From positions 1 to 54,370 of the IMG/VR virus record IMGVR_UViG_3300046167_000449: a DNA stretch of 54,370 bases; one strand, given 5' to 3'. Both the position numbers and the translations under genes were made by a program. Positions within the stretch are counted from its first letter, which is position 1, and each line of letters begins with the position of its first letter. The notes beneath the pieces were generated by a model. That model did not search any database. It was not told the origin of the DNA and saw only the letters and a list, made by a program, of their open reading frames with translations. Shown piece by piece: positions 8,733 to 54,370 of the stretch. Source of the DNA: a virus (Duplodnaviria; Caudoviricetes).

Positions 8733-11411
8733 ATGGCCATTAATATTCAAGAAATACTACACCCTAGTGACTCTGATGCTATTAAGTTCGCAAAGATTAA
8801 CTATAACTTTGACCAACTCGTAGTCAATGGCGGTGGACCTAGAGGTCCAAAAGGAGATCAGGGTAATCAAGGGGTTACCGGTTCTACAGGTGCTGTAGGT
8901 GACACAGGTCCAAAAGGTGACAAGGGAGATTCAGGCGAAACTACTAGCCCTTGGAAATCAATTGTAATAGATTCAAACATTAACGATAACCAAGATAACG
9001 TTACAATTTTAAAACCTAAACCAGATACTGATAAAGAAACTCCGGTTATTTGGCTTGGGGATGCTTCTTTTATTAATAGTGGTAATAATGCTAGTGATGG
9101 AGATTTAACTTTAAGGTCTACTTTGAATATTGGTAGACACTATAATTTTGAAAATAACATAATAGAGGCAGAGTATGTAACTTTTTGGCATGATGCTAGT
9201 AATAAACTTAAAATAGATTCTGAAAACGTTACAACTGGTAGTGGCTTTGTTAGATATAACATTTCTCCGGTAATTCCAATATCGGGACAGTCACCAGATG
9301 TTAGACTTCAGATTAATACACATACAATACACACTGAACATTTTCAACTAAATAATTCTGGAGCTTCAGGAACACCTGAATCTGGTATGATTAGATATAA
9401 TGCTGGTGGTAATAAATTTGAAGGGTATATCGGTGGTAACTGGGTAGATTTCTGTATGGAGCCTTGTGGCTCTGGAGGCGGAGGTACTATTAGTATATCA
9501 GGAGGTGATTTAGACCTTAATCCTGATGGAAGTTTAGTTAGTACTAGTGCTCCAGCCCCTCAATATACATATAATATATGGACTGGTTCAGGTGGTACAG
9601 TTTCAGTTGACGCGGGAGGTACTATTACTATTAATGATGGTAATTCAACTCAAGTGGTACCAACACCTGCTTTATTCCCTGCAAATGATGATGCTGGCGT
9701 TGAAATGGTAAGCGTTGATCTTGAGATAACAATCCCAGGCGGTTATCAAAATGCTGGAGGAACAATTACAGAAAGTGCTATTATTTTATCACAACCAACT
9801 AGTTATGTTGCACCTAGCTTAAACACATACGATTTAACATTAACTACAGCAGGTTCGTATTGGTCTATATCTGATGCGACTATAATAACTAGTAATTCTT
9901 CATCTGGTACAACTGCCGGAACATATAGTGGAGGTGTTTTACAATTCCAAGCTTATGATGATGCGACCGTTCAAGTTCGTATAGATGCAGACACTAATCA
10001 AGGTTATGAGTTTGATGCTAATGGTGGTGCCGGAGCATTTAGTACAAATGGTGGTGCTAATGAACAATCAGATATAACTACTAACACTAGTCAGGCAACA
10101 TATTCATTTAATCTTAATACAGGAAATGCTCAAAACGGATTTGGATTAGCAGATGGTGCACATACAGTTCAAGTAAATGCTGATACTACACAGATACTAA
10201 TACCGATATTAACAGGTTCATATAACTATTCGTTTGGTGCTAATGCCTATGACGCATGTAATGATGCTGCAGGTGGAAATACTGGTATGGCGGTTTCTGT
10301 TCCAGCAAGTCCAGCACCTACAAACCAAACATGGCATGATGCTGCACTTGTAGCAGCAGGAATACACCATGCTAGTGGACCGGTACATGGAGCTAATGGA
10401 TGGGTAACTATTACTCAACTTAGGGATGAAAATAATAATATTTTACCAACAGCTGATACAGTAGTTGATACAAACCAAGCTGGAGGATTTATCGGTAGCC
10501 CACAATCTTGTGCACCGGCAACAACACAACCATTACCGCAATTTAATTGGACTAACTCGTCGTCACAATCCAGTCCAATAACACTGGGTTGGGGTACGAC
10601 TTCCGGTGAAAACACACAACCATTTACATGGAACGGCGGTACAATCGCAAGCGGTAACGCAGCTATCAGTCACTTTAATTGGATTGCGTGGGACAGCTTA
10701 TTGCCTAGTGCTAGTGTTACTGTTAGAAACGCATCCGATACTGGTCCTCATGCTGGTGGTGATGGTATTGCTAAATTCTTCTTTGACTTTGACACGAGTG
10801 ACCCGCAAGGAGTCCAAGGCCCATATGAGAATGGTTTGGTATTTAACGGCTCCTCTACCATGTTTAATCCTATACCGTATGATGGTGTAAATTCAACTGA
10901 TGGGTTATGGGCAAGGATAGAGGCAACATGTCACGTTGCAGGTACTGTAATAAATCTAGCTGATGGAACAACTAAACTAGTTGAAGACTTAGAAGTTGGA
11001 GATGTATTAGCATCATATAGCATTACAGGTCTTGGAACTGATGAAAATGAACAGCCATGGGAGACTTACTCAGTAGACGCAACCGGATGGTCTGCTACTC
11101 AGAGTACAACTACAGTAACGTTTGTAACAGAAGGTTTATTTGACGAGTATTACAACTTTAATAACGATTTAACTAAAGTTACACGTGAGCACCCAGTTCT
11201 AGTAAAAGCTGGTGATAACATTTCATTCAAAAGAGCTGATGCTGTAGTTGAGGGAGATTCATTCTATATCAACGGCGCATGGGTTGAAATTACTAGCATT
11301 GAGCTTGTAACTGCTGACCCAAAAGTTATGACATATACAATAGGTGTTGAAGAAGAAGATGTTTATCTAGCAGATGGTATCTTATGGCACAATACCATTA
11401 CTGGTAAATAA
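8733..11411 (+). CDS. Tail fibre / adhesin with collagen G-X-Y repeat and C-terminal Hint domain
   Basis: GPRGPKGDQGNQG collagen repeat; GMIRYNAGGNKFEGY fibre motif; CHVAGT...TREHP...ILWHN Hint blocks; GATATATA at 8666. Confidence 0.75.
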   Translation: MAINIQEILHPSDSDAIKFAKINYNFDQLVVNGGGPRGPKGDQGNQGVTGSTGAVGDTGPKGDKGDSGETTSPWKSIVIDSNINDNQDNVTILKPKPDTDKETPVIWLGDASFINSGNNASDGDLTLRSTLNIGRHYNFENNIIEAEYVTFWHDASNKLKIDSENVTTGSGFVRYNISPVIPISGQSPDVRLQINTHTIHTEHFQLNNSGASGTPESGMIRYNAGGNKFEGYIGGNWVDFCMEPCGSGGGGTISISGGDLDLNPDGSLVSTSAPAPQYTYNIWTGSGGTVSVDAGGTITINDGNSTQVVPTPALFPANDDAGVEMVSVDLEITIPGGYQNAGGTITESAIILSQPTSYVAPSLNTYDLTLTTAGSYWSISDATIITSNSSSGTTAGTYSGGVLQFQAYDDATVQVRIDADTNQGYEFDANGGAGAFSTNGGANEQSDITTNTSQATYSFNLNTGNAQNGFGLADGAHTVQVNADTTQILIPILTGSYNYSFGANAYDACNDAAGGNTGMAVSVPASPAPTNQTWHDAALVAAGIHHASGPVHGANGWVTITQLRDENNNILPTADTVVDTNQAGGFIGSPQSCAPATTQPLPQFNWTNSSSQSSPITLGWGTTSGENTQPFTWNGGTIASGNAAISHFNWIAWDSLLPSASVTVRNASDTGPHAGGDGIAKFFFDFDTSDPQGVQGPYENGLVFNGSSTMFNPIPYDGVNSTDGLWARIEATCHVAGTVINLADGTTKLVEDLEVGDVLASYSITGLGTDENEQPWETYSVDATGWSATQSTTTVTFVTEGLFDEYYNFNNDLTKVTREHPVLVKAGDNISFKRADAVVEGDSFYINGAWVEITSIELVTADPKVMTYTIGVEEEDVYLADGILWHNTITGK
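10929..11393 (+). other. Hint (mini-intein/BIL-like) autoprocessing domain, 155 aa
   Basis: Block A C-H-V-A-G-T...L-EVGD, block B TREH, block F YTIGVE, block G WHN followed by Thr. No homing endonuclease. Confidence 0.85.
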
Positions 11412-14851: not shown

Positions 14852-14865
14852 AAGATATATAAACT

Positions 14866-15243
14866 ATGAAAGATACTAAAACATTTAACGAATACTTAGT
14901 TGAGCAAAAGCTAACTGAGACTGATATGACACTATTACAAGAGTCCCTACAATCAGAGTGGACTCCTGAATTAGAAGAAAAAGTTGACTTTGCGCTAGAG
15001 CAATTTGTACAACAATTTCAGAATGAAGATGGTTCTTTTGATTTAGACAGATTAGAAGAAGGCATTGTTAACGAAGGACTTTTAGGTTCTATCTTTGGTG
15101 GTCTTGCAGGATTTGCATTAGGTAAATCTGTTGGTAAGATGATTGCTAAAGTACTTGGTATTCAAAAAGGTATTTTCTACGATTTATTAACTTCCCGTTT
15201 AGTTGGCGCTGCCCTAGGTGCTGCAATGGGTAAAAGAATCTAA
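14866..15243 (+). CDS. Head-packaged protein with capsid-targeting-like N-terminus and Gly-zipper hydrophobic C-terminus
   Basis: MKDTKTFNEYLVE resembles the T4 CTS MKTYQEFIAE; IVNE precedes GLLGSIFGGLAGFALG; late promoter at 14854. Confidence 0.55.
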   Translation: MKDTKTFNEYLVEQKLTETDMTLLQESLQSEWTPELEEKVDFALEQFVQQFQNEDGSFDLDRLEEGIVNEGLLGSIFGGLAGFALGKSVGKMIAKVLGIQKGIFYDLLTSRLVGAALGAAMGKRI

Positions 15244-19614: not shown

Positions 19615-21123
19615 GTGGAATTAACGTTAACAGATAATAAGCAGTTCTTGCGTGTGGATGAGGCGTCCGAAATGGAAGTTGAACAACTCAATATCACACT
19701 AAATAGACGTATTGAATCTTGGAGATTTCATCCCCTGGTTAAGAAGGGTTTATGGGATGGTTACATCTCATATATCAAAGATGATAAATGGATTCCATCT
19801 GGTCTTTGGCGAGAAGTAATGAATATGTGTAAGCAGTATAAATATGAGCTTAAACTAAATGGCATTACAAGACTATTTGATACTAATATAAAAGCTGCAG
19901 ACTTTGAAGCATGGGCAATGGATTTCTTTGATGGTTCAGAGATACAACCTAGAGATTATCAAATTGAAGCTGCATATAATATCCTTAAATTTAGAAATTG
20001 TCTAAGTGAGTTGGCTACATCAGCTGGTAAAACTCTTATTTCATTTATGGTAATATCTTACCTATTAGAAAAACAAAAGGCTGGTAGAATTCTTTTTATT
20101 GTACCTAATGTCTCACTTGTTGTTCAGGGTTCAGAAGATTTCCAAGACTATAACTGGAGAAACCAAGCCAATATAAAAGTACAACAGATTTATTCAGGTC
20201 AAAAGATTAGACCAGGTAGAAATGTAGTAATTGGAACATATCAATCACTAGTTAAAAAGGATAAAGAATATTTCCAACAATTTGATGCAGTACTTATTGA
20301 TGAAACACATAAGGCTAAATCACAATCTATTAAAACTATCCTACAAAAATGTACAGCAGCTAATTATAGGTTTGGACTTTCGGGTACAATTCCAAAAGCT
20401 GGTAGTTTAGATAGATTAACACTTATGGCTTATACTGGTCCTGTAATTACAGAGGTTAGTGCAAATTTCCTACAAGAAGAGGGACATATTGCAGGCTGTA
20501 AAGTAAAAGTAATAAAAATGGACTATGCTGCTGAAAGTACTAAGAATGCTTTTAGAGAAATGTCCCAAAATAGATATGAAAGTAAAGACGTCTATAAATT
20601 TGAAAGCAATTATGTTATACAGTCGCCAGGTCGGCTTGCATTTATTTGTAGCATTATTTCCAGAGTTAAAGGCAATGGTCTTGTCTTGTTCCATAGGATT
20701 GAACATGGTAAAAAGATTTATGAGAAATTGCGCCAAGAGTCTGAAAAGAATGTTTACTATGTAGACGGAAATACAGACAAAGATATTAGAGAAGAGTATA
20801 AAAAGAAAATGGAAGCGGGTGCTGAGATTATCATTGTAGCATCCTATGGTACATTTTCAACTGGTATATCAATTAATAAGATACACAATATATTCTTTAC
20901 AGAGTCCTTTAAATCCGAAGTTATTATTAGACAATCAATAGGTAGGGGACTAAGAAAACACAAGTCTAAAACTGATGTAAATATCATTGACTTTGTAGAC
21001 GATCTATCCTCCCCGGATTGGGATAACTACTTAATTAGACATGCTAAAGCTAGGCAGAAGATCTATAGAGAACAGAAGTTCCCGTTTGAGGTAAAAAATG
21101 TGACATTTGAAGGGGATATATAA
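19615..21123 (+). CDS. uvsW: UvsW SF2 helicase
   Basis: PRDYQ, ATSAGKT, IDETH, GLSGT, FSTGISI and QSIGRGLR. Confidence 0.93.
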   Translation: MELTLTDNKQFLRVDEASEMEVEQLNITLNRRIESWRFHPLVKKGLWDGYISYIKDDKWIPSGLWREVMNMCKQYKYELKLNGITRLFDTNIKAADFEAWAMDFFDGSEIQPRDYQIEAAYNILKFRNCLSELATSAGKTLISFMVISYLLEKQKAGRILFIVPNVSLVVQGSEDFQDYNWRNQANIKVQQIYSGQKIRPGRNVVIGTYQSLVKKDKEYFQQFDAVLIDETHKAKSQSIKTILQKCTAANYRFGLSGTIPKAGSLDRLTLMAYTGPVITEVSANFLQEEGHIAGCKVKVIKMDYAAESTKNAFREMSQNRYESKDVYKFESNYVIQSPGRLAFICSIISRVKGNGLVLFHRIEHGKKIYEKLRQESEKNVYYVDGNTDKDIREEYKKKMEAGAEIIIVASYGTFSTGISINKIHNIFFTESFKSEVIIRQSIGRGLRKHKSKTDVNIIDFVDDLSSPDWDNYLIRHAKARQKIYREQKFPFEVKNVTFEGDI

Positions 21124-21159: not shown

Positions 21160-23191
21160 ATGGGTTCATTAAAACTACAGTCTTTTGATGATTTTGCTAA
21201 TGCTACTGCTAAAGCAGCAAAGCTAAAATTAGAAGAAGAACAATCAGCAGCAAGAGACGCAGCTGCATACGAATTTAAAACACTACTATCTAAGTTTGGA
21301 GTAACAAAAATTAAAGACCTTAACGAAGAGGACAGAAATAAGTTCTTTAGAAAGTTAGGTGCTACAGAGATTAGCGAATCAGTTGCTATCATTGAAGAAG
21401 GTACACGTTCTCAAATCGGCCTTATTAACAAGAGAGGAAAAATCAAATCAGTGTATATGCACTACGATGGTTATCCAGACCACATGTTACCTACAATTAA
21501 AAAAGGTAAATACGATGCTGGAACAGTTAAGACTTTACTAGGTAAAGGAGGTGGTTCATACTTAGAGCCAGACTGGAGAAATATCAACTTCTATGGAGAT
21601 AAAACTACACTAGATGGTGACGTTAATAAAATTAACAAATTTATTAGAGATGCATCGAACGATGCAGGCGCAGAATTCGTTTACTTATTTGACGAAAGAG
21701 ATGGTAAGTGGTATATGGCAGATGTTTATGCTGAGACTGGTTTACAGAAAGCTTTTGAATCTATGGTAATTAATGAAGCATTTACACCAAGTAAAGGTAA
21801 TTTAAGAGATGCTAAGAAAGTAAAGAAAGCACTAGAGCAATTCTTTACTAACCACAACGCGTTAATGGATAAATCTATTTTTTTAGGAGTATGTAAATAC
21901 TTATTAGCAGAATCTTTAACAGATGCTAATTTCCATTCTTATAGAGAGCCTGTAAGTAAAGTACTTAAAGGTAAATTAAGTACAGTATTTGTAGAGATCG
22001 ATGGATTAAACAATATGAAAGTTCCAATCGGTAAGAAATCAATTATTACTTTATTAGATGAAGTTGGTCCATTTATGGCATCAGCTGCTGGATGGTCAGG
22101 TATTGGTATCGTTGAAGGTATGGCATTATTCTTAGATAGCTTCGGTAATTCTGATCTAGCTCAGAAAATTGTAGATGAATTTAATCTAATTTTCCAAAAC
22201 GAATCTGTAGTAAATGAAGGTAACGCTTTCTTAGCTGCAAGAGCTAAAGCAATCGAAGAAGATGCTGAAGAATTTGAATTTAACGGTAAGAAATTTCCAG
22301 TAATTAAAGAAGAAGAGGAAGTAACTGAAGAAGTAAACGAAGGTTTACACCCTAAATTAAAGAAAGCTATGAAAGCTGTTGAGAAAGGTGAAACAGTTTA
22401 CGGAGAAAACGTTAGGTTCCCTGGAAGATTTAAAATTATAGAAATGGGAGAACTGTTCGCAACAGTAGACTATGAAGATGGTACAGAGCCAATGGAAATG
22501 GCTTCAATGAATATCAGAATTGATTCTTTACAATTTGAATCAGTAGAAATTGAAGAAGGTAATGAATTCGGTGCTGCTAAGAGCAGAAGCAATTGCAAAA
22601 GGCGAAAAAACTTTTAAAGTTGGTGACGAAGAATATCCAGTAGAAGATGTTTCTAAGGAAGATGAAGAGAACGCAGAAGAATATGCTGAAGAAGAAGGTA
22701 TTGAAGTAAAAGAAGAGGAAGAAGCTGAAGTTACTGAAGCTAGATTTGTAAAGGATTACGAAGGTGATGTTTTAAACGCTGAAACTGAAGAAGAAATTCT
22801 AGAAGTTTATCCTGACGCAAAATTCTATGTTGGTAAAATGTCACACTTTTTTGGTGAGTTAATGCCTAATCTTTTCTTTAAAGCTTATTATGCTAAATAC
22901 TATAAAGAAGATACTGGTAAATCAATTAAAGGTGATTTTAAAATTACTTCAATATATTCACAAAAAGGTAGCAACTATCAATATTTATTTAATGAGTCTG
23001 CACAACCTACTAATGAAGCTGAAGTAAAATCAGATGAAGAGTTTAAAGAGTATGCATTCTCAGTTTTGGGACAAGCATTCGGTGATAAATTCGACGAAGA
23101 AAAAGCTCAAGAAGTAGTAGACGGTTTATTAGACAAACACGGCGATGACTATGGTGCAGCAGTTGGCGCATTACAATCATCACTAGGATAA
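21160..23191 (+). CDS. Head-packaged modular polyprotein 1 (frameshift near 22580)
   Basis: CTS-like LQSFDDF; repeated ESxx(xx)(I/V/T)(N/E)E linkers separating distinct domains; late promoter at 21115. Confidence 0.7.
22219..22642 (+). repeat. Duplicated 28-aa module GN(A/E)FxAARAxAI...FxxxGxx(F/Y)PV
   Basis: Copies at 22219-22302 and 22558-22642, each starting right after a linker Glu. Confidence 0.75.
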
Positions 23192-23210
23192 AAACAATCT
23201 AAAACTTCTT

Positions 23211-24484
23211 ATGAAGATATACACAAATTTTACAGAATTCTTAAACGAGAAAGCTCCAGGTAAACAACTTGGAGAGTTTCGTATTTGAAGGTGGGGCCGC
23301 TGGCCACATGATGCACCCATTCGATGACCATTCATTAACATTTGCTGATTTCAAAACTATTGTAAGATCTGCACTACAAGGAGGTCTTGATTTTGAAGAG
23401 ACACCAACTGAAAAGACAGATGGTCAGAATGTATTTGCAACTGTAAAGGATGGTAAAGCAATGTTCGCTAGAAATAAGGGACAATTAGCAAATCCACTAG
23501 ACCTAAATGGTATCATTAAGATGTTCACTGGCCACGCTTCAAAGCTGGTTGAAGAAACATTCATCTTTGCTGCTAAAGATCTAGCAGAAGCGCTCCCAAA
23601 GCTTAAGGACCAGTCTATATTTATGGACGGCCAGTCTTTTATTAATATGGAGCTCATTTATTCTAAAAACCCTAATGTAATCTATTACGATAGAGATGTT
23701 ATTCAATTCCATGGTATGAAAGTTACTGATGGCAATGGTAATATTATTGGTGAAGAGAATATTGCAGGTGAAATAGTTAAAGCACTTAAAGAATTAAAAG
23801 CGGATGTGCAAAAGACCTTTACAATAATTCCCCCTCAAATTTTAAAGTTAGGAAAAGATATTAACTTTGATGATAGAGTCGGCTATTACGAAAAGGCGAT
23901 AAATAAACTAAGAGATACTTATGGTTTATCAGATCAAGATGAAGTCAAAATGTATCACGAAGCTTGGTGGAGAAATGAAATCGAAAAGTATTTTGGAGAT
24001 TTAGACCCAGCATTAAAAGAAGGTCTTTTATTAAGATGGGCATACCTAGACAAGAAGACTCTAAATATGAGAGAGTTAAAGAAGGCAGTTACTCCAGATC
24101 AAGCAAAAGCCGTTAAAGAATATGACGGTCAAAGAAATAAGAAGTATAAAGAAAATATACTACCTTTTGAAAACCTATTTTTAGAATTAGGTGCAGATGT
24201 TTTAAAGAACGTTTCTAATTTTGTTGCTGCTAATCCAGAAGCTGAGAAAGCTAGATTACATAAGCAAATCAGAACTGAGGCTGACAAAGTTAAAAAGAAC
24301 GGCGATCTAAAACAAATCGAGAAGGTAGAAAAAGAATTAAAGAGACTAGAAGGGTATCGGTGGTATCGAGTCAATTATTCCAACTGAAGGCCTAGTCTTT
24401 AAATATAATGGTAAAACATTTAAACTAACGGGTACCTTTGCTGCAATTAACCAGCTAATGGGTATCATTAAATATGGTAGATAA
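23211..24484 (+). CDS. Covalent nucleotidyltransferase (RNA/DNA ligase-like) with CTS; frameshifts near 23255 and 24352
   Basis: MKIYTNFTEFLNE; motif I TEKTDG, III INMEL, IIIa IQFH, IV PTEGLVF, V FKLTG. Confidence 0.7.
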
Positions 24485-26343
24485 TGGCACTAAATAATTT
24501 AAAAACATATTTCGAAGGCGCTAACTCAAATGAGTTTATGGATTTACTTAATAACAAATGTATTGTTACTGAGAAAATTGATGGCTCATCTTTTCATGTA
24601 AAGAGAAATAAAACAGATTTCTCTTACTATAAGTCTGGTTCAAAGACTGAGATGAATGTTATAGATCGTACAATCGTTAGATATTACGAGAACGCGATTA
24701 GACATTTTAAAACAGTTACTGAAGAGAACAAGTTAGATATGCCTTTTGATTGGAAATTTGGTTTTGAATATTTAGGAGATAATAAGACTATTGATATTGA
24801 ATATGATGTATTACCAAAGTCTAATTTAGTTTTAACGCATATACAAGTACTACAACCTTCTAATCCAAATAAAGTTAGAAAGGTAATTAGAGATACTAAG
24901 ATTCTAAATAAATGGGCAGATAAATTAGATGTTAATAGACCTCCAGTTCTTTTTGAAGGTCTTTTACATTCTGGTCAAAAATCTGCAATCGTTGATGTTT
25001 TAGAAACGAGTATAAATGAATTTGAAGAGAGATTTGAAAATCCTGATAGACCTTCTTTTACTAGAGTAGTTTATAGTATCTTTAATGAAAATCAAAAAGC
25101 ATCAGCTTTAATGCACGATCTTTCTAAAGATGTTTCTGGTTTTATAGTTAACTTTCATGATGGAAAGGGACTTAAATCTTTTGTCTTAGAAAAGTTTAAT
25201 AAACAACCAAGACCAGAAAGAAAACCATCTGACATGTATCAGATTTCTATTTTAGACATCGTTGAACATTTTATGCAATTTGATATTGATTCAATAGAAT
25301 TAAAAGAAGAAACATCTGACAAAAGATATTTAGAATTAATGTCAGAGATGTTTAATAGTTATATTGACGCAAATGCTACAAAATATATTGGAGCTAAATT
25401 TGACTCTGCAGATTTTGCAGAATCTCCTATGTTTGAATTAAACCATAAATTCTTACAAAACGAAAAGACATTAACTTTAGTACAGGATAAAATTTTAGCG
25501 GAACTATTTAAAATTACTTTAGGTTCTTTTAGAAGAAAGAGAAGTAAGGAGACTGATATTATTTCTGGAGATGTGTTAACAGGATTAAATGAGCTTATTG
25601 AAAAGGTTGAAAATAAAATATTAGCTAAAGCAAATGAAGATAGCGTAATGAACTTTAAACAGTATTTAGTAAATCAAAGAATATCTGCTGAAGTATCACC
25701 TGTTATGGAGGCTTTAAAAGTAGACTATCCAGAAAAAGGTAAACAATTAGTAAATATGTTTGTTGGTAGATTCCAACCATTTACATTAGGACATGCTAAA
25801 GTTGTAGAAACAATTCATAAGCAAAATGGCTATCCTGTAGTTATTCTATTAGTTAAAGCTAAGAATAAGAAAAAGGAAGATGCATTTAAGAGACCTTATG
25901 ATGAGGCAACTCAAGTGGCTATGATAAACAGATTAAAGGGTAAATTACCTATTGAAGATATTTTCGTAATTCCAACTGGAGGTATTGATACTATGTTTAA
26001 TGCAATGAGACCTAAATACGAACCTGTATTATGGGGAACTGGAAGTGATAGAATGAGAACTTATGGTTTTCAAGTAGATAAGCAGGAATATAGAGATGCT
26101 CTAGATGTTAGAGATGATTTTGGTTTATTTGAAATCCCTAGAACAGGAAAGAATATATCAGCAACTCAAGTAAGAAATGCAATGCTAGATGGCGATGAGA
26201 AGCTATTTAAGAAACTAACTCCTAAGCCATTACATAACATGTATGCCGAGTTAAAACAAAAATTAGAAGACTCGATGGGAGTTATGGCAGAATCTACAGA
26301 TGTAGAGTTCTTAACCTTCGATGATTTTATTAAGAATATATAA
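24484..26343 (+). CDS. Fusion of a ligase-like domain and a HIGH-class nucleotidyltransferase (cytidylyl/NMN-adenylyltransferase-like)
   Basis: VTEKIDGSS at the N-terminus; GRFQPFTLGH, GSDR and ISATQVR at the C-terminus. Confidence 0.8.
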   Translation: MALNNLKTYFEGANSNEFMDLLNNKCIVTEKIDGSSFHVKRNKTDFSYYKSGSKTEMNVIDRTIVRYYENAIRHFKTVTEENKLDMPFDWKFGFEYLGDNKTIDIEYDVLPKSNLVLTHIQVLQPSNPNKVRKVIRDTKILNKWADKLDVNRPPVLFEGLLHSGQKSAIVDVLETSINEFEERFENPDRPSFTRVVYSIFNENQKASALMHDLSKDVSGFIVNFHDGKGLKSFVLEKFNKQPRPERKPSDMYQISILDIVEHFMQFDIDSIELKEETSDKRYLELMSEMFNSYIDANATKYIGAKFDSADFAESPMFELNHKFLQNEKTLTLVQDKILAELFKITLGSFRRKRSKETDIISGDVLTGLNELIEKVENKILAKANEDSVMNFKQYLVNQRISAEVSPVMEALKVDYPEKGKQLVNMFVGRFQPFTLGHAKVVETIHKQNGYPVVILLVKAKNKKKEDAFKRPYDEATQVAMINRLKGKLPIEDIFVIPTGGIDTMFNAMRPKYEPVLWGTGSDRMRTYGFQVDKQEYRDALDVRDDFGLFEIPRTGKNISATQVRNAMLDGDEKLFKKLTPKPLHNMYAELKQKLEDSMGVMAESTDVEFLTFDDFIKNI

Positions 26344-26363
26344 AACAAATATAGTATAATAAC

Positions 26364-26777
26364 ATGAATAACATAAAGACATTTGAAGGTTTCAGAGAAG
26401 ACGGTTACAAACCAGTAAATGAGTCTATTCCATTTGGATCTTACTACTATAATGATAGAACATCATTTGGAGAGCATGGTGATAACCTTCCAGAAAAAGG
26501 TGAAACTAAATACCTAGTATTTGCTCATAATAGCGCAGACCTTAATGGTCAAACTATTAGATTAGAAGGTGAGGTTAGATTTGGATCTACAACTTCAAAA
26601 AGATACATTGGAATTTTTGAAGACGAAGCATCTGCAACAGATGCATATAGTGCTTCTATGAAAAAGCCAGAAGGAACATTTGTTTCTTTCTCAATGGGAA
26701 CTCTTTATGCAAAGTCTAAGTTTTCATTTCAATATGAAGAGACTAAAGGTTATTTAGCAAAAATTAAAGTAAGATAA
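26364..26777 (+). CDS. Internal head protein with CTS
   Basis: MNNIKTFEGFRE...PVNE then a 115-aa domain; AATATATA upstream. Confidence 0.65.
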   Translation: MNNIKTFEGFREDGYKPVNESIPFGSYYYNDRTSFGEHGDNLPEKGETKYLVFAHNSADLNGQTIRLEGEVRFGSTTSKRYIGIFEDEASATDAYSASMKKPEGTFVSFSMGTLYAKSKFSFQYEETKGYLAKIKVR

Positions 26778-26779
26778 TT

Positions 26780-28878
26780 ATGGCAACATTCGAAGACTTT
26801 TTATCAGAAGGTAAGAAAATACAAATTAAAAGAAGGTATACTGAGAACCACCCTGCTTCAACAGTAGGTAAAACTGCTAGCGTAAGAAACGCAGTACTTA
26901 AAGCAGTTAAAGATGGTGTAATCACAGAAGAAGAGTTTACTAAAATACTTTCTGAATTATCCTGGTGACCATAGACAATGGAGAACTAGAAATACAAAAT
27001 ATTTTAATGTTTCTGAAGAGGGTATTAAACTTTCAAAGTGGGGTCTTAGAATTTTAGCTGAATTAGATGAAGAACCTAAAGCTGCTGGGGTATTTCGAAG
27101 CTACAGTAGAGATGGATGCAATTAACCCTGATGATAAAGACTTCCTAAAATTCTTAAAGAAGAATAAAGTTAAGATTATCAATAAAGAAATGGACGGTCC
27201 AGGTGGAGGCTACCCAGTTATCACAATGCAGGGTAAAAGAAAAGACCTTGAAAAAGTATTAGCAGATTCAGAGCTTGGATGGGACGATCCAGATTTAGCT
27301 GAGTATATCGAAGAGTCAGTAAACGAAAAGATTAAAGTTACTAAAGACGAATGGCCTTATATTGAATTCAAAGATGGTGGTAAAAAGCACAAAGTAGAAT
27401 TTGATTATGAGGATATTATTGACGACCACGGTAACGAGGGCCAAGATCAATACTGGATTGGTAAAGATGAAGATGGTCAAGAGTGGCAAATAGATGTTTA
27501 TGCTGATTACAGAGGTGAAGTAGAAGAAGTACACTATGATACTTTAATGGTAGCAGAGAATAAATCAGTAAATGAAAAAGACGACGCCGGTGACCACTTA
27601 GACAAGCTTGCTGAATTAGTAGGTAAAGCAAAAGACTTTATGTCAGTTGGCAAAGAATTAAAAAAAGGTAAGTACAAATATGACTTTGGTACTGGTATGA
27701 TGCCACACTATCAAGTAGAAGCAGACGGATTTACTTTTATGATTCTTAATAAAAGATATGTTGACAAAGGCGATAGAGAAGTTGGCGATATTGCAATCGG
27801 ACTATTAGAAAATATGAACACAAATATGACAAACACAAACGAAATTAACTTATTTGAATCATTCGGAGCATTCTTAAACTCTGAGGGTATTCTTAACGAA
27901 GCAATTAGCTCTTCTATATTAAGATCAGTTCTATCGAACGGTAGAGAAGGTAAACAAGCTAAGAAAAATCTTTCTCAATTAGCTAAAGGTTTTTATGGGC
28001 TATCTAAAGTAGCTCTTGATAAAATTCAAGATGAAGATTTTATTATTAGCAATGACGTATCAAAAGTATTTAAGAACTATGGTGGTTCAAGCCACGTACT
28101 TTTCTTTATCTCAGATAACGAGAAAGAAAATCCATACTATGACCATAATAACGGATCTTGGAATGACTATAAAGTAGTTCCAGGTGGAGGTATTGTATTA
28201 GCAGCTATGTCTGGTGACAGACAATTCTATGCTAACGAATGGTCAAGATGGGCAGGTGAAAGAGCTTGGTCTAAGAATAAAAAAGGTGATGTAGACCAAA
28301 TAGGTATCAACCACAAATACAGAGGTTGGGGCGCATCAGGTCTTAATAATGGTAAGAGAATTTCAGAGATGTCTGATAGAGTTATTGTTATCAACCTAGA
28401 ACTAATTAGACAAAAGTATTCTACTGAAAATCTTAGAAATGCAAGAAAAGAAGCTAGAGCAGGTGCAACAGCATTCAAATCTGATAAAGACTTTAGAGAT
28501 GCTAACAGAAATAGATACCACAAGATCTTAGCTGATAAAGCAGCAAGCTTACCACTAGATAAAATGGTATCAGATGCTATCGATAAACTTGCTAAACAAA
28601 TCTCAGACGGTTTAAAGAAAGGTGAGAAGACTAGATACCAAGAAATTAAAATTGGTGAATCTCCAAAAGGTAAAGAAGTAAAAGCAAAAGATGCATCTCA
28701 ACACATGTCAAATATCTTAGATGACTATTCTAGGTATGTAGATTACATTAGACAGGCAGAAGAATCTGAAGCTAGATATGGTGAAAGAGAATCTTACTAC
28801 GAAAGAGAATCTAAGAACTATGCAAAAAACATTAAAGAAAGAATAAACAAGATTGATAGTTTCGACTACGCTTGGTAA
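26780..28878 (+). CDS. Head-packaged modular polyprotein 2 (frameshifts near 26962 and 27092)
   Basis: MATFEDFLSE; linkers GVFE, EESVNE, NKSVNE, NLFE and GILNE. Confidence 0.68.
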
Positions 28879-28890
28879 TATAATAGAGAT

Positions 28891-30536
28891 ATGCCTTCTG
28901 TAAGTAAGTCACAACAAAGATTAATGGGAATGGCATACGCTGTTAAATCCGGCGACATGGAAATCTCAGACATCGACCCAGCTTACAGAGACAAAGTAAA
29001 ATCATTATCAGACGGAATGACAAAGAAAGATCTAAAGAAATACGCTTCAACAAAACACGAAGATTTACCAGAGACGGTAGATGAAGATTTTGCTCAAGCA
29101 CAACAACATATTACTCCTAGTGCAAACATTGGAGGTATGGGTCCTGTAATTTTACCATCTGATGGTGGCGTTGGTTCCGGTGATGTTCCTTCAGTTGCAG
29201 ATATAGATGATGACGAAGAGGAAGCTAAGAAAGATAAAACAAAAAAGAAATTAGAAATGGAAGGATTTAAACTATTTACACAATTTAGTAACTTTATTAA
29301 TGAGGGTTTAGCTGAGTCCGATAAAGTATACGAAGAGGCTATACTTGAAAATGCGGTTAGAGATTTACATTTTGAAACTGATCCAAAGAGAGCTGAAGAA
29401 TTAAAAATAGAAATCGGTACATCTCAAGGTGAAGTTACAAGAAGAAAACAAATTGAAGGCGGTGAATATTCACTAAGAAGATTTAGAAAAGAGATTAAAT
29501 ACGATGAGACCTGGAGAAGATCTTGGTGTATTTAAACCTGGTAGTTATATGGCTGCTACTTCTACATTAGGTGATGGTCCACATAAGAAAGTGGTTAAGA
29601 AGAGGAGATGGAACCAGAAAATGTATAACCAATGGATTGAGGATGTAGCTTCTAACGGTGGCTGGGAACATGCATTCGATATGGCCCAAAATGCTAAACA
29701 TGAACATGGGCTTATTGATTGGGTAAAGAAAAACTATAGAGATGACGATCCAATGCAAAGAATTCAATGGGATATTGAAGCATTTCGCAGAATCTGTAGT
29801 TATTGAAGCTGAAAGTGTAAAGGTAGGAGAATATATCAAAACCCAATACGGTTATTTCTATAAAAGAGTCGACGGTAAAGTTGGAGGACAAGAAGCTTTC
29901 GTTGAAATAAAGAAAGGAAAAGAAGGAAAGAGAAAAACAAGTATTCATGATACAGTTAGCTTTGAAATAGTTGATAAAGATGCTGCATTCGAATCATTGG
30001 TTACTGAAAAAAGTTGGAATGACGTTGCAAAAGTAATGGATGCTGGATTAAAGAAGGCTATAAAGAAAGGTATAACTACTTTAAGGTATGCTAAAGATTA
30101 CGTTAAATCATTAGAAAGAATGGCAAATAAAGAGGCTAAAAAATTCTTTGACGAGTATGGAGATTTTACCGAAGATGATTGGATTGAGGATGTAAGATAT
30201 AATATGGCTAATGAAAAAGTTAAAGACTATTTTTCTGAATGGGTAGCACTTAATGAGAAGAAAGAAGAAGATAGAGACGGTATGATGAAGTTTATTAAAA
30301 AGCACATGAGCTTTGTAGGTACTTCTGAAGATTTCAACGGCTCTGAAGGAGGTATTCATGTTTCCGGAGAAAATTGGGAAGATGAATTTAAAGGTCAAAC
30401 AATATATGACTACTACTCAGAAGATTACAAGAATAGAGAATTTGGTGTACTTAACTCATGGGAAAAGGAACTAAATAAAAGAGGATGGTATAGTGAGTGG
30501 TACGATGCAGGCACGGTCATGATATGGCCACTATAA
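28891..30536 (+). CDS. Head-packaged modular polyprotein 3 with DUF3008-like N-terminus (frameshifts near 29508 and 29785)
   Basis: MPSVSKSQQRLMGMA...KYASTKHEDLPE; internal FTQFSNFINE; linkers ESVVIE, ESLVTE and ALNE. Confidence 0.65.
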
Positions 30537-35379: not shown

Positions 35380-35844
35380 ATGGCGAACGCAGATAACAAA
35401 TGTGCAGATTTGGAAGTCCAAGACTTTCATTCAGAAGCAGAAGACACATTGGGTCTTATTTACAACAAACAAGTAGAATTACAAAAGCGTTTAGGCTTCG
35501 ACTTTACAGGTTGGAACTTAAAGCAAATTGCAGATTTCTGGTGTGTAAATAAACACGCAATGTCAGATGAATTAAATGAAATGTTTGATGCCCTTGGAGG
35601 TATTAACGACGGTATTGCCTCAGGTGCATGGAAATACTGGAAGAGTACTAATGCTCAAGCAGCTGATATGAAGATTGAAGATCTTTCTAAAGCTGATAAA
35701 TTAGAATTATTTTATGAATGGATTGATGGATTGCATTTCTATATGAACTTTGCAATTTCTATTGGTATGACGAGTAAGGATATTGTTAACCTGTACATGG
35801 CGAAGAACGCAGAGAACCATGACCGTCAAAACCGAGGATATTAA
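35380..35844 (+). CDS. All-alpha dimeric dUTPase/dCTPase (T4 gp56-like)
   Basis: DELNEM, WKYWK, EWIDGLHF and YMAKNAENHDRQNRGY. Confidence 0.85.
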   Translation: MANADNKCADLEVQDFHSEAEDTLGLIYNKQVELQKRLGFDFTGWNLKQIADFWCVNKHAMSDELNEMFDALGGINDGIASGAWKYWKSTNAQAADMKIEDLSKADKLELFYEWIDGLHFYMNFAISIGMTSKDIVNLYMAKNAENHDRQNRGY

Positions 35845-37256
35845 TGCTATTAGATATTGAACAAAAAGAGAATGAGTTAATTGTATCTTACTTTAATAAA
35901 GAAGGTACAGTATCATTTAAACGCTATCCAGTAAAGCAGTTTCAAAATTGGGTCGTAACGAAAGATGATGACAAGTGGAGAGACCCTAATATTAAAAACT
36001 GGGATGGTAGAACCTTAAAGAAGTCTAGATCCAAGACCTTTAATAAGTTTTCATTACTTTATTTTATGGATTCACTATCACAAGAAGATAGAGATGAAAT
36101 ATATGAGTTCAATATGCCTCGCACTTATTTTGTTGATATTGAGACTGAGATTGTAGATGGTTTTCCAAAACCTGAAGAAGCCAAGTCTCGTATATTAACA
36201 TTTTCAATTATCACCCCAGAGCGAAAGGCTATCGTTCTTGGTCTAGAAGATTTGTCTGCAGAACAAATTAAAAAGATCGAAGATGATACTAATGCTCATT
36301 TTAAAACAGGTGATTATGACCAGGACTGGGAATTTAGTTATTACAAGTTCAAAGATGAGTACAATATGTTGTACACATTCTTGCACAAGTTTTTACCTAA
36401 GTTTCCTATGATGACTGGTTGGAACTTTATCAACTATGACTGGCAATACATTGTCAATAGATGTAAAAGACTACAAATCGATTTAACCGATGTTGCTATC
36501 ACTGGCTCATTAGATAAAAAAGATTCTAGACCTTTACACATGGGTATTTTAGACTACATGCAATTGTACGATAAATATGATAGATCTGGACACGTAAAAG
36601 AATCAAACGCATTAGCATTTGTATCTGGCGCAGTCTTAGATGGTATAAGTAAGATTAATTATAGTGGTTCGTTACAAGACTTATATGAAAATGATTTTCA
36701 AAAATATGTTTTCTATAATGTAATTGACTCGGTATTGGTTTACTATATAGATCAAAAGCTAAGATCTATGGAAGTCCTGCTAACATTAGCAACCATTACT
36801 AAAATGCCACTATATAAAGCTGCCTCACCGGTGGCTATTACTGAATCTCTAATCGCTCGTAAATTAGCCGAACAAGATAAACGTATCGGTACTGAGTGGG
36901 ACAGAGAAGATGGTAAAAAAGATGCAAAGTATGCCGGAGCCTTTGTTAAAGAACCTATAACCGGATATTATAGTGGAGTAAGTGCATTTGACTTTGCATC
37001 ACTATATCCATCCGTAATGAGGCAATTTAATATTTCACCGGATTCGTTCATCGAAATTGTTCCTGAAGCAGAAGTCAAGGAACGTAGAAAAGACCAAGAT
37101 GTTATAGTTTGTCAGAATGGAGTTGTTTATTCAAAAGAAGAAAGCGTTCTTAAAAAAATCTTAGGAGATTTATATGCTCAAAGAAAAGATTACAAGAAAA
37201 CTTCTTATGATTATTACACAAAAGCTGACGAACTACAAAAAAAATTTAGTCTTTAA
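35844..37256 (+). CDS. gp43A: DNA polymerase B, N-terminal subunit (exonuclease plus motif A)
   Basis: DIETE, GWNFINYD, YNVIDS, YAGAFVKEP and FDFASLYPS; ends shortly after RKDYKK. Confidence 0.92.
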   Translation: MLLDIEQKENELIVSYFNKEGTVSFKRYPVKQFQNWVVTKDDDKWRDPNIKNWDGRTLKKSRSKTFNKFSLLYFMDSLSQEDRDEIYEFNMPRTYFVDIETEIVDGFPKPEEAKSRILTFSIITPERKAIVLGLEDLSAEQIKKIEDDTNAHFKTGDYDQDWEFSYYKFKDEYNMLYTFLHKFLPKFPMMTGWNFINYDWQYIVNRCKRLQIDLTDVAITGSLDKKDSRPLHMGILDYMQLYDKYDRSGHVKESNALAFVSGAVLDGISKINYSGSLQDLYENDFQKYVFYNVIDSVLVYYIDQKLRSMEVLLTLATITKMPLYKAASPVAITESLIARKLAEQDKRIGTEWDREDGKKDAKYAGAFVKEPITGYYSGVSAFDFASLYPSVMRQFNISPDSFIEIVPEAEVKERRKDQDVIVCQNGVVYSKEESVLKKILGDLYAQRKDYKKTSYDYYTKADELQKKFSL

Positions 37257-40838: not shown

Positions 40839-41255
40839 ATGAAAAATTTTATTTTAACAATGGCACTTGCAGTATTTACTGCCTTCGGTGCAAACGCGCA
40901 AAACGCAAAAGGTGACTGGTACGTAGGTACTGGCGATATTACTAACACGGCTTGGACTGAGTTATCAATCCAACCAACAATTGGCTATGCTTTTTCTGAC
41001 AACTATATGGTTGGAATGAATTTGACACAAGCAGACTCAACAGAAGACATGGTCTTAGGTCTTGAAGGAAGATATTTCCATAAAGGCTTTTTTGGCTACG
41101 TTGCATTGAATGACTTTGATTTCGATCAAGCTCAATTAGGTGTAGGTAAAATGTTTGAGTTTCACAAAGGAGCAATGTTTGTAGACCCAAAGATCGTTTA
41201 CGATTTAGGAGCTGAAACAACTAACCTTCAAATCGGATTTGGCTTAAAGTTCTAA
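40839..41255 (+). CDS. Outer-membrane beta-barrel protein (Bacteroidota-type, about 8 strands)
   Basis: Signal peptide ending ANA-Q, alternating amphipathic strands and C-terminal BAM signal GFGLKF. Confidence 0.8.
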   Translation: MKNFILTMALAVFTAFGANAQNAKGDWYVGTGDITNTAWTELSIQPTIGYAFSDNYMVGMNLTQADSTEDMVLGLEGRYFHKGFFGYVALNDFDFDQAQLGVGKMFEFHKGAMFVDPKIVYDLGAETTNLQIGFGLKF

Positions 41256-54182: not shown

Positions 54183-54370
54183 ATGGCAGGATTTACCGAA
54201 AAAAGAAACGGACCATTCAGTTCTAACACAAGACCATTTAGCCTTTCAAATGCTTTGAAAACGCTAAGTTCTTTTGGTATGCGTTATGACGACATGGTAC
54301 TTAGACAATCTCAAGCAATTGGTCCAATGGAAGACCAGTTTGGCTATAGAGAGATGAACCCGTTTGGCCT
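54183..54370 (+). CDS. 5' part of a late gene, probably portal (gp20-like); truncated by the window edge
   Basis: GATATATA at 54154; open frame MAGFTEKRNGPF...LSSFGMRYDDMVLR. Identity inferred from context only. Confidence 0.4.
   Translation, partial: MAGFTEKRNGPFSSNTRPFSLSNALKTLSSFGMRYDDMVLRQSQAIGPMEDQFGYREMNPFG

Follow-up and report, generated by a model that had tools for sequence, protein, structure and literature searches.

Three long genes of the window, the 54,370-base stretch of viral DNA analysed here, encode strings of small modules and are probably capsid-targeted polyprotein cargo which is diced by the prohead protease. The genes, called A, C and D, were recognised from the list of open reading frames (ORFs) and by reading the junctions between modules.
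21160..23191, + strand: polyprotein A, about 677 aa with the extra base 22578 ignored; 8 modules
26780..28878, + strand: polyprotein C, about 699 aa with the extra bases near 26961 and 27094 ignored
28891..30536, + strand: polyprotein D, about 547 aa with the extra bases near 29510 and 29783 ignored
The chains of modules with recurring Glu-terminated linkers, proposed in the original prediction, were confirmed in all three genes when the ORFs were re-read, and every junction of A, C and D ends in hydrophobic-x-Glu. The genes are situated among replication genes. The pattern extends beyond the window to a group of uncultured marine T4-like phages, and a polyprotein ORF of the window or of its relatives contains 4 to about 14 modules. 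No description of such linker-joined phage polyproteins was found in print.

In this record the three genes are split. Gene A is listed as ORFs 21160-22617 and 22550-23191, gene C as 26780-26968 and 27067-28878, and gene D as 28891-29535, 29504-29806 and 29742-30536. Comparison with the 95%-identical relative L002, in which gene A is one ORF of 646 aa and gene D one ORF of 479 aa, showed that the breaks are single-base insertions at 22578, 23249, 24351, 26342, 26961, 29510 and 29783; a further one lies near 27094, and at least eight fall within 9.4 kb of this record. In contigs from four public runs, belonging to four studies, the extra letters were absent at 22578, 23253, 24350/52, 26963, 27093/96, 29510-12 and 29786. 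Since the inserted letters are missing from four independent assemblies, it was concluded that genes A, C and D are whole in nature, as had been assumed at the outset. The density of insertions could suggest that faulty assembly, or translation across sequencing errors, has produced the long ORFs. However, errors break ORFs and do not create them, the four assemblies lack the insertions, and intact homologous polyproteins are present on dozens of independent contigs; this explanation is refuted. The listed start of ORF C at 27067 was rejected as an out-of-frame artefact, the true start being at 26780 with the leader MATFEDFLSE.

Polyprotein A consists, in order, of an N-terminal helical propeptide-like module, GTRSQ (phrog_1987), AFTPS, two GNAF/GNEF repeats bearing acidic tails, GLHPK, ARFVK and AEVKS. 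Its linkers are as follows.
21376..21399, + strand: linker ESVAIIEE, A residues 73-80; pLDDT below 50 at 72-80
21757..21777, + strand: linker ESMVINE, A residues 200-206; pLDDT below 50 at 200-206
22201..22218, + strand: linker ESVVNE, A residues 348-353; pLDDT below 50 at 348-354
22327..22341, + strand: linker EEVNE, closing an acidic spacer at the left edge of GLHPK; pLDDT below 50 at 384-397
22537..22557, + strand: linker ESVEIEE, right edge of GLHPK
22721..22738, + strand: linker EAEVTE, preceding module ARFVK
22991..23014, + strand: linker ESAQPTNE, preceding the conserved C-terminal module AEVKS
The GTRSQIG module matched phrog_1987 (residues 81-189 to profile positions 2-117 of 128, E 4.5e-14). 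It is, as had been proposed, an otherwise free-standing protein whose first residue directly follows the linker Glu, and in 12 relatives the module after ESVAIIEE begins at G81. The GLHPK module is missing from L002, where the replacement lies exactly between two linkers.

Polyprotein C begins with the leader MATFEDFLSE, which is followed by the GKKIQIKR module, GVFE, the ATVEMDA module, ESVNE, the KIKVT module, KSVNE, the KDDAG module, a fossil leader ending in ILNE and a C-terminal module of 325 aa.
26780..26809, + strand: 10-residue N-terminal leader of C; aromatic at 4 and 7, Leu at 8, Glu at 10
27313..27327, + strand: linker ESVNE, ORF C residues 83-87; pLDDT below 50 at 85-87
27559..27576, + strand: linker NKSVNE, ORF C residues 165-170; pLDDT below 50 at 165-171
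27811..27900, + strand: fossil N-terminal leader inside C (…NLFESFGAFLNSEGILNE); pLDDT below 50 at 249-270

Polyprotein D contains, in order, a DUF3008 N-terminus, a GGMG-x-V-x-LP...GSGD stretch, a fossil leader ending in FINE, the HFETDPK module, ESVVIE, the GEYIK module, ESLVTE, the KSWND module, ALNE and a C-terminal module.
29790..29807, + strand: linker ESVVIE, 18-mer copy with 2 mismatches
29991..30008, + strand: linker ESLVTE, 18-mer copy with 2 mismatches
30246..30257, + strand: junction ALNE, preceding the conserved C-terminal module of D; ESVVNE, ESTVNE or ATLNE in relatives
Fourteen of the 15 linkers listed in the original prediction lie at junctions backed by homology or fold models. 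The remaining one, 'ILE' in D, was rejected as a junction and lies within a module that is continuous in the relatives L024, L128 and L132. The junction FINE/G (D1 residues 135-138), at the end of the fossil leader, had been overlooked.

The linker of relatives hardly varies and is the hexapeptide ES-V-V-(T/N)-E. Among 360 non-redundant + strand ORFs of relatives, ESVVNE (19 copies) and ESVVTE (18) were the two most frequent hexapeptides, and the next had 12. For 10 module families, a Glu was found within 2 residues of the junction at all 84 projected starts and exactly at P1 in 59 of them; P3 was Leu, Ile or Val in 57 of these 59 (background frequencies: E 8%, VILMFYC 33%), which departs from the phiKZ-like motif S/A/G-x-Glu. 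Val occupies P3 more often than under the T4 rule. The P1' residue is small (Ala 90, Gly 22 and Ser 16 among 177).

Of 56 strict linker sites, 51 coincided with a homology break; among 276 control sites, 134 did so. Collinear subject pairs amounted to 311 of 497 at linkers versus 2187 of 2554 at controls. In two AlphaFold models, every linker in the modelled parts of ORFs A and C lies in a stretch of pLDDT below 50; these stretches are 1-8, 72-80, 131-137, 200-206, 348-354, 384-397 and 410-472 in A, and 1-8, 85-87, 165-171, 231-239, 249-270 and 466-469 in C (pLDDT of the C model, 81.9). Thus, the linkers coincide with homology boundaries and with low-confidence inter-domain stretches; a mismatch here had been named in advance as grounds for abandoning the prediction. 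Furthermore, the same modules were found behind different neighbours, or free-standing behind a leader of 10-13 residues. The first and last modules of A and C are conserved among relatives, module content differs even among 95%-identical genomes, and module order is freely shuffled. No module matched a family of known function or a solved fold (Pfam, PHROGs, NCBIfam, PDB).

According to PMC9026906, the T4 capsid-targeting sequence (CTS) has 10 residues; positions 4 and 7 are important in targeting, positions 8 and 10 in processing, and gp21 cuts after L/I-x-E. The leader of C, with F4, F7, L8 and E10, follows this rule. It is also followed by B1, in a 13-residue form, and by ORF 14866; the start of A agrees with it only loosely.
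14854..15243, + strand: GATATATA box, then a 125-aa gene (ORF 14866) with the CTS-like leader MKDTKTFNEYLVE
21115..21122, + strand: promoter-like box GATATATA, about 40 nt upstream of gene A
23212..24484, + strand: B1, conserved single protein with leader MKIYTNFTEFLNE; broken by inserted bases near 23249 and 24351
24484..26343, + strand: B2, conserved 619-aa protein, non-modular
26364..26777, + strand: B3, 137 aa, leader MNNIKTFEGFRE...PVNE
54183..54370, + strand: first part of the portal gene, truncated where the window ends
B1 carries a KxDG nucleotidyltransferase-like motif and had no match in Pfam, PDB or NCBIfam; the C-terminal domain of B2 is cytidylyl/NMN-adenylyltransferase-like. Leaders and linkers replace each other. 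The GKKIQIKR module is preceded by M-x-x-F-E/N-D/E-F-L-x-E at N-termini and by ESVVTE, ESVTNE or ANVNE internally, and the B3 module sits internally in a polyprotein of L024. Free-standing homologues of the 325-aa module open with a leader that the polyproteins retain internally, Met included. The related genome G001 has such a leader on 8 of 278 genes, whereas 0.45 would be expected, and these 8 are concentrated near the polyprotein genes.

The prohead protease gene (S77) is not within the window, which stops at the portal start; gene order there is as in relatives, where the S77 protease-scaffold gene and a gp23-like capsid gene follow. A search of 10 related records revealed PF03420 (S77) in 5 of them, as a fusion with an acidic scaffold and beside the portal and gp23-like capsid genes. 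Neither G006 (66% complete, with a 3-linker ORF) nor G007 (estimated complete, with only one 18-mer) yielded a match. A small gene at the gp67/68 position of relatives, between portal and protease, has a similar leader. In addition, all 7 head-region genes of L040 are preceded by the GATATATA box at a distance of 12-111 nt. For gene A this distance is about 40 nt, both in the window and in at least 10 relatives, and of the copies in G001, 38 are on the + strand and 2 on the opposite one.

The idea of prohead loading fits the CTS-like leaders of C, B1 and ORF 14866, the interchange of leaders and linkers, the S77 protease of syntenic relatives and the shared box. Several observations count against capsid cargo, among them the position of the genes amid replication genes, the outcome for the protease gene in the window, G006 and G007, the lack of modules with a recognisable function and the synonymous-site conservation of the linker described below. 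The leader of A (MGSLKLQSFDDF...) has no Glu among positions 10-13. The N-terminus of D (MPSVSK...) is DUF3008-like and departs from the CTS-like leader rule. The predicted capsid maturation site of relatives is about KLYE/D, an L-x-E site and not ES-V-V-T/N-E. Finally, free-standing look-alikes of one module map to the frd-gp32 region of classical T4-like phages, which is an early region.

A standard linker that resembles a capsid-protease site suggests that many small proteins are packed into the head together. In the scheme that we favour, each module, of about 40 to 325 residues, would fold on its own and be joined to the next by a linker ending in (Val/Ile/Leu)-x-Glu, and the polyprotein genes would be co-transcribed with structural genes. 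A short T4-type capsid-targeting leader would carry the entire string into the prohead core, so that a single leader could load many cargo proteins. There, a T4-type S77 prohead protease, cutting after Glu in L/I-x-Glu, would cleave the leader and each linker, and the released small proteins would remain in the head and exit with the DNA at infection. The arrays may have arisen by in-frame fusion of adjacent leader-bearing genes, followed by reshuffling at the linkers. By analogy with T4 internal proteins, it may be guessed that the modules act early in infection, for instance in counter-defence.

The linkers are also conserved at the nucleotide level, which had been overlooked and adds either a DNA-level role or a rival explanation. 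With up to 3 mismatches, the window contains 5 copies of the linker 18-mer against 0.28 expected, a number reached in 0 of 100 shuffles; each of the five lies within A or D on the + strand, and the A linker ESVVNE (22201..22218) is the consensus with 2 mismatches. Linker codons are nearly fixed (V = GTA in 41 of 45, V = GTT in 43 of 45, T = ACT in 23 of 23), above the major-codon share of about 0.6 at invariant residues of orthologues used as control, and synonymous-site conservation stops sharply at the 18-mer edges. Because of this synonymous conservation, a protease site alone is insufficient as an explanation.

It could be supposed that the proteins stay whole and that the linker is a spacer acting as an 18-base DNA joint for in-frame domain swaps, the Glu peptide being a by-product. 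The fixed synonymous sites with their sharp limits favour this view, as do the swaps of modules exactly at linkers between near-identical genomes and the in-frame deletions and duplications between repeats that occur in natural populations. However, junctions unlike the 18-mer in DNA (GVFE, ICE, LCE, ILNE, IIEE, FLSE) keep hydrophobic-x-Glu at P3-P1, N-terminal leaders, which are impossible as recombination joints, share this ending and replace the linker before the same module, and the small P1' residue is what a cleavage site predicts. We consider it rather unlikely that the linker is a DNA joint and nothing else. The two roles are not mutually exclusive, and it is probable that recombination in frame makes use of the near-identical 18-base linker as a joint. 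Combining both, one may tentatively envisage a cassette system in which the 18-base element is at once the code of a prohead-protease site and a fixed DNA joint; effector genes would be fused, swapped, duplicated and deleted in frame, giving single-leader arsenals that are diced in the head and injected.

Cleavage could also take place elsewhere, if another Glu-specific protease, of phage or host, cut the linkers in the cytoplasm and yielded equal amounts of small proteins with no capsid link. The position among replication genes, the absence of a CTS-like leader from D and the resemblance of one module to proteins of the frd-gp32 region would agree with this, but Pfam, PHROGs and NCBIfam searches revealed no peptidase domain in or beside the polyproteins, the leaders follow T4 capsid-targeting logic and recur on a gene in core position between portal and protease, and gene A has the promoter-like box of the head genes. 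This makes a purely cytoplasmic fate improbable. It is likewise improbable that the polyproteins are loaded and cut, not as effectors, but as core, scaffold or inner-body material that shapes a large head or the packed DNA. Such material has precedents, since multiple cuts by the prohead protease are described for T4 core proteins and for inner proteins of phiKZ and SPN3US (PMC9026906, PMC5694885). CheckV puts the window at 20% of the genome, hence roughly 270 kb and a large head, and the conserved first and last modules of A and C would suit a structural part. Against this, variation of module content between 95%-identical genomes and shuffling of module order are unusual for parts that must fit a structure, and the AlphaFold models show compact folded domains, unlike acidic or coiled-coil scaffolds.

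Taken as capsid cargo, the polyproteins resemble T4 IPI, IPII, IPIII and Alt in having a short N-terminal leader ending in aliphatic-x-Glu and an S77 protease in the lineage, in that small diverse cargo genes are scattered away from the head genes, and in their expected fate of packaging and ejection (described for T4 in PMC9026906 and PMC3012670). None of the modules showed sequence similarity to T4 internal proteins. In T4, every internal protein is encoded separately and has a leader of its own and a single cut; here, as many as about 14 unrelated modules occupy one frame, and the putative cut site is a standardised hexapeptide that is fixed also at the nucleotide level.

Polyvalent proteins, as presented by Iyer et al. 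2017 (PMC5512222), unite 2 to 15 unrelated domains in one phage or plasmid polypeptide, comparable to the 4 to about 14 found here; their delivery together with the DNA and their proteolytic release have been proposed. However, they are described as carrying an embedded peptidase (MPTase) and enzymatic domains (ART, ParB-like), while release here would be due to the head protease at a repeated linker. No peptidase family was found in the window's island ORFs (Pfam, PHROGs), in 7 + 3 polyproteins of relatives or in 8 proteins compared with NCBIfam. Polyvalent conflict domains (ART, DdrB-ParB, SNF2, methylases, LPD) were not found, the only matches being DUF3008, DUF5824 and sub-threshold ones. 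The words 'linker' and 'DUF3008' are absent from the main text of PMC5512222. From the published descriptions, a gp21-related protease likewise cleaves many inner-body and ejection proteins of phiKZ, 201phi2-1 and SPN3US behind a Glu, frequently more than once per protein; there, cuts at S/A-x-E remove long propeptides from single proteins, whereas here cuts with V/I/L at P3 would separate folded modules.

Similarly, RNA-virus polyproteins are single translation products diced at repeated short sites into many functional proteins, but in the phage case the protease would be outside the polyprotein and processing is proposed within the assembling capsid. Short conserved sequences flank interchangeable units in integron cassettes, polymorphic toxin tips and the module-border linkers of lambdoid phages. 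Unlike in these systems, the joint described here is internal to an ORF, leaves it in frame and encodes a probable protease site. If the cassette reading outlined above is true, marine T4-like phages would carry fast-changing 'beads on a string' arsenals, in pieces small enough for the tail channel, and the cargo would be injected ahead of gene expression.

The linker 18-mer was found in at least 120 IMG/VR stretches, often as arrays. In the 80 of these that were analysed, 107 of 116 copies sit in the linker frame of ORFs of at least 150 aa (median 648 aa); a single ORF contains as many as 10 strict linkers. By comparison, 596 Gb of cellular genomes gave 52 matches, all of them singletons in ordinary proteins, which are due to chance.

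In the ORF list of the window, the three long genes of the region 21160-30536 that code for multi-module polyproteins (A, C and D) appear in pieces. When the region was compared with L002, a 95%-identical IMG/VR relative, the breaks corresponded to single-base insertions in the window, located at 22578, 23249, 24351, 26342, 26961, 29510 and 29783, with one more near 27094. Seven of these eight inserted bases were missing from contigs of four public runs belonging to four studies (26342 was not among the listed positions), and in L002 gene A is one ORF of 646 residues and gene D one ORF of 479 residues. Since neither L002 nor the contigs of the four runs contain the inserted bases, programmed frameshifting and true gene ends at the frame breaks were ruled out, and the region was read as listed below. 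All large genes of the window are carried by the + strand.

Genes read in the region 21160-30536 (window positions)
21160-23191: gene A, polyprotein gene
23212-24484: gene B1, conserved, non-modular
24484-26343: gene B2, conserved, non-modular
26364-26777: gene B3, between A and C
26780-28878: gene C, polyprotein gene
28891-30536: gene D, polyprotein gene

A start of ORF C at 27067 was rejected as an out-of-frame reading, the true gene start being at 26780, and the peptide MKNLKLLGYFE, considered as the leader of ORF C, was discarded as an out-of-frame artefact. Elsewhere in the window, a pair of gp46-like ORFs overlapping at 49461-49489 may reflect another insertion error.

The long genes with a recurring linker ending in Glu, on which the original prediction was built, proved to be real. 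The linkers, coded by a near-fixed 18-mer, are somewhat degenerate in the window and nearly uniform among its relatives. In 360 non-redundant + strand ORFs of the related loci L002-L035 (86,423 residues), the two commonest hexapeptides were ESVVNE (19 copies) and ESVVTE (18 copies), ahead of the motifs conserved in orthologous enzymes (up to 11-12 copies). Strict sites numbered 56 in 25 of these 360 ORFs and, once the loci found by DNA pattern were added, 177 in 76 non-redundant polyprotein ORFs, one of which holds ten strict linkers and another nine. The residue directly after the linker was Ala at 90 of the 177 sites, Gly at 22 and Ser at 16. Furthermore, L, V or I stood two places before the first Glu of the linker in 98 of the 177 sites, so that the linker offers two tandem hydrophobic-x-Glu sites.

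The linkers had also been expected to coincide with homology and domain boundaries, and both expectations were borne out. When the modules of the window were compared with those of relatives by BLAST, the alignments began and ended at linkers, and comparison of module order showed the same module recurring in other proteins and at other positions. For 11 module families, the residues preceding the module copies differ, yet end in hydrophobic-x-Glu. A Glu was found at most two residues from the projected module start in 84 of 84 cases and exactly at P1 in 59, with L, I or V at P3 in 57 of these 59 junctions; the remaining 25 starts are displaced by one or two residues, owing to the way in which the query modules were cut. 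A homology break in at least one relative was observed at 51 of the 56 strict sites versus 134 of 276 control positions, a contrast to be taken as indicative and not as a probability, since the controls include degenerate junctions and the related sequences are not independent. This break test replaced a cruder and weaker one that measured how far the ends of BLAST segments lay from strict linkers and in which 52 of 355 starts and 66 of 346 ends fell within 10 residues of a strict linker, versus 568 of 7100 random positions. When gene A of the window was aligned with that of L002, a single DNA segment (22342-22544) could not be matched; it corresponds to the module GLHPK, swapped between two linkers, EEVNE and ESVEIEE.

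Among the repeated GNAF modules of A (22311-22710), in-frame deletions of 89 and 132 codons (corrected for the base inserted at 22578) were seen in contigs of the public runs X7 and X11. Contigs of X2, X7 and X11 contain a 19-codon duplication between these modules.

ORF C and part of gene A were modelled with AlphaFold2. For ORF C, a 40-row alignment yielded a mean pLDDT of 81.9 and a pTM of 0.44, with pLDDT below 50 at residues 1-8, 85-87, 165-171, 231-239, 249-270 and 466-469; two short linkers and the fossil leader, a leader kept inside the polyprotein, fall within these stretches. For residues 1-472 of gene A (15 rows, the last module lying outside the model), the mean pLDDT was 64.2, with values below 50 at residues 1-8, 72-80, 131-137, 200-206, 348-354, 384-397 and 410-472, where all four linkers of the modelled part are found. 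The low pTM fits beads without fixed mutual orientation.

As described in PMC9026906, the capsid targeting sequence (CTS) of T4 consists of IPIII residues 1-10, with residues 4 and 7 important for targeting and residues 8 and 10 for processing, and gp21 cleaves after L/I-x-E. In the leader of gene C these positions are occupied by Phe 4, Phe 7, Leu 8 and Glu 10. Within the window, such a leader is present on C, B1 and ORF 14866 and is less clear on B3, B2 and A; D has no CTS-like leader. In G001, a related virus record of 212 kb, 8 of 278 genes bear a CTS-like leader, versus 0.45 expected from shuffled N-termini, and these genes cluster round its two polyprotein genes. In addition, the same module occurs either at the N-terminus after a short leader or internally after a linker. 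In seven non-redundant proteins, the GKKIQIKR module is preceded by M-x-x-F-(E/N)-(D/E)-F-L-x-E, and in four others by ESVVTE, ESVTNE, ESIQE or ANVNE. Free-standing homologues of the 325-residue C-terminal module of C (330-347 residues) start with the leader M-K-x-x-F-I-F-E-S-F-x-E-F-x-x-S-L-N-E, which is kept, Met included, before the module inside polyproteins.

B1 also contains a KxDG motif; it gave no database match and nothing against PDB sequences. B2 has an NMN-adenylyltransferase-like C-terminal domain, for which PDB sequences gave weak NMN-adenylyltransferase matches only. Placed between polyproteins (23212-26343), B1 and B2 may be packaged enzymes. The C-terminus of B2 (…LTFDDFIKNI) resembles a leader.

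An 11-residue stretch, NIGGMG-x-V-x-LP, followed by GSGD, is found both in D-type proteins and in the N-terminal arm of the G001 capsid protein, which is gp23-like. It lies at 29125-29157 in the window (residues 79-89 of D) and at 9905-9937 in the related locus L041 (residues 60-70 of the capsid protein). Nine of the 11 residues are identical between D and the G001 arm (pairwise E 0.002), and the motif was found in 8 non-redundant D-type proteins. This stretch of D may represent a second way of addressing the capsid interior.

The prohead protease family of T4 gp21 (PF03420, Peptidase_S77) was detected in two of five related virus records searched (G001 and G002) and in three of five further linker-bearing records (G008, G009 and G010). 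It was not detected in three fragments (27-32% complete), in G006 (66%) and in G007 (estimated complete), the last of which has a single 18-mer that may be due to chance. In G001 and G002, the protease forms the N-terminal part of a protein of 728 or 820 residues with a long acidic scaffold-like tail, and its gene is located downstream of the portal gene, flanked by a small acidic gene that bears a CTS-like leader and by the gp23-like capsid gene. The same gene order is found in the window up to the portal gene, whose first residues form the end of the window. In the loci L040 (6743-8929) and L041 (7161-9623), an S77 protease and a highly acidic, repeat-rich scaffold-like tail make up one ORF.

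The box GATATATA occurs nine times on the + strand of the window (476, 8666, 14854, 16669, 21115, 37282, 50310, 51405 and 54154) versus 5.0 expected, and 6 of 100 shuffles reach nine. All of these copies lie 3-125 nt upstream of an ORF start, measured from box end to ATG, and they precede gene A, a tail-fibre-like gene and the portal gene, among others. In L040, 7 of 7 copies are situated 12-111 nt upstream of head-region genes, and in at least ten relatives the box stands about 40 nt upstream of gene A. On the + strand of G001 there are 38 copies, compared with 2 on the - strand, and a box lies at most 120 nt upstream of 32 of the 278 genes, including the portal, protease-scaffold and capsid genes, one A-type polyprotein gene and five leader-bearing genes. 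The T4 late promoter TATAAATA was not enriched (5 matches versus 11 expected). Judging from the genes downstream, GATATATA is probably the late promoter of this clade, replacing the T4 box.

The best-supported account of these genes, and one that we consider moderately probable, is that of a capsid-targeted polyprotein that would be cut by the prohead protease; the logic of the sequence, its comparative anatomy, the fold models and the gene context all point in this direction. The concepts closest to it are those of T4 internal proteins and of polyvalent proteins (Iyer et al.), from both of which the polyprotein arrays differ. In the searchable main texts on prohead protease, polyproteins, internal proteins and capsid targeting, no description of such arrays was found; ESVVTE, ESVVNE, ESLVTE and DUF3008 are likewise absent from that literature. 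If cut in the head, the polyproteins would constitute a natural multi-cargo delivery design, in which a single short leader, together with a standard linker, suffices to bring any chosen set of small proteins into a capsid and to release each of them separately. The idea of T4 internal proteins would thereby be widened from individual genes to arrays that are shuffled. Leader and linker would then provide a sequence rule for hundreds of candidate injected proteins of uncultured marine phages, all of them currently unannotated sequence, as well as ready-made building blocks with which phage capsids could be engineered into carriers of proteins.

The GTRSQIG module could be recognised, as proposed, as a normally free-standing phage protein: it matches phrog_1987 and, in the ESM Atlas, clusters made up solely of viral hypothetical proteins of 109-146 residues. 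The ATVEMDA module matches phrog_5922 and proteins of about 75 residues encoded in the frd-gp32 region of T4-like phages. With Foldseek against BFVD, one module retrieved about a dozen small free-standing phage proteins (probability 1.00, target TM 0.5-0.7), with no match at E ≤ 0.001; against PDB, the whole multi-domain models of ORF C and gene A likewise gave no match at E ≤ 0.001. Searches of Pfam, PHROGs, NCBIfam and PADLOC returned only DUF3008, DUF5824, phrog_1987, phrog_5922 and sub-threshold matches, and neither there nor with Foldseek against PDB was any module matched to a solved fold or to a family whose function is known. No named protein was found among 86 relatives of the 325-residue module.

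At the DNA level, the 56 strict sites use one 18-mer far beyond what codon usage predicts.

Codon use in the linker (count in linker; background share)
Val, third residue: GTA, 41 of 45; 0.46
Val, fourth residue: GTT, 43 of 45; 0.42
Thr: ACT, 23 of 23; 0.45
Ser: TCA, 39 of 56; 0.32

At amino-acid-invariant columns of orthologous B2 proteins, the share of the major codon is about 0.6. Nucleotide conservation ends at the edges of the 18-mer, whose consensus has stops in both other frames (TAG in one, TAA-TGA or TGA in the other). At least 120 IMG/VR stretches contain the exact 18-mer, many of them in 2-5 copies, and in the 80 stretches analysed (L053-L132), 107 of 116 copies were in the linker frame of ORFs of at least 150 residues. 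In cellular genomes (596 Gb) it was encountered 52 times, with a single copy per stretch in every case, in ordinary proteins and unrelated taxa; as these singletons are at chance level, they give no clue to the host. Codon fixation and distribution are evidence for a putative spreading or homogenisation of the 18-mer by recombination, and it probably serves as an in-frame joint. Its DNA-level conservation shows the linker to be more than a protease site. If the polyproteins are cut in the head, such fixation would be a rare example of a short element under selection at the peptide and the DNA level alike. The consensus linker DNA also contains an out-of-frame ATG, for example at 22201-22218 of the window and in loci L013, L022 and L024.

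The 54,370-base virus record is about 20% complete according to CheckV. With PHROGs, a T4-like replication and recombination set was identified in the window (gp32-like SSB, primase, UvsW-like helicase, DNA polymerase in two pieces, ribonucleotide reductase, UvsX, gp41-like helicase and gp46/47), together with a gp4-like head completion protein and gp2. The closest phage-collection records are uncultured huge phages with 48-49% protein identity, and the runs containing the window stretch are marine or seawater metagenomes. As regards cultured relatives, A, C and the polyprotein of locus L128 had no match by tblastn in 50,697 phage records, and megablast likewise gave none. LR756500.1, the closest record by polymerase and capsid protein, contains four scattered near-matches to the 18-mer and no array.

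Two separate genes (35844-37256 and 42111-43319) code for the DNA polymerase, and the roughly 5 kb that separate them contain the ribonucleotide reductase genes. A 138-residue ORF at 40839-41255 starts with a putative signal peptide (MKNFILTMALAVFTAFGANAQ) and is the sole such gene noticed among the replication genes.
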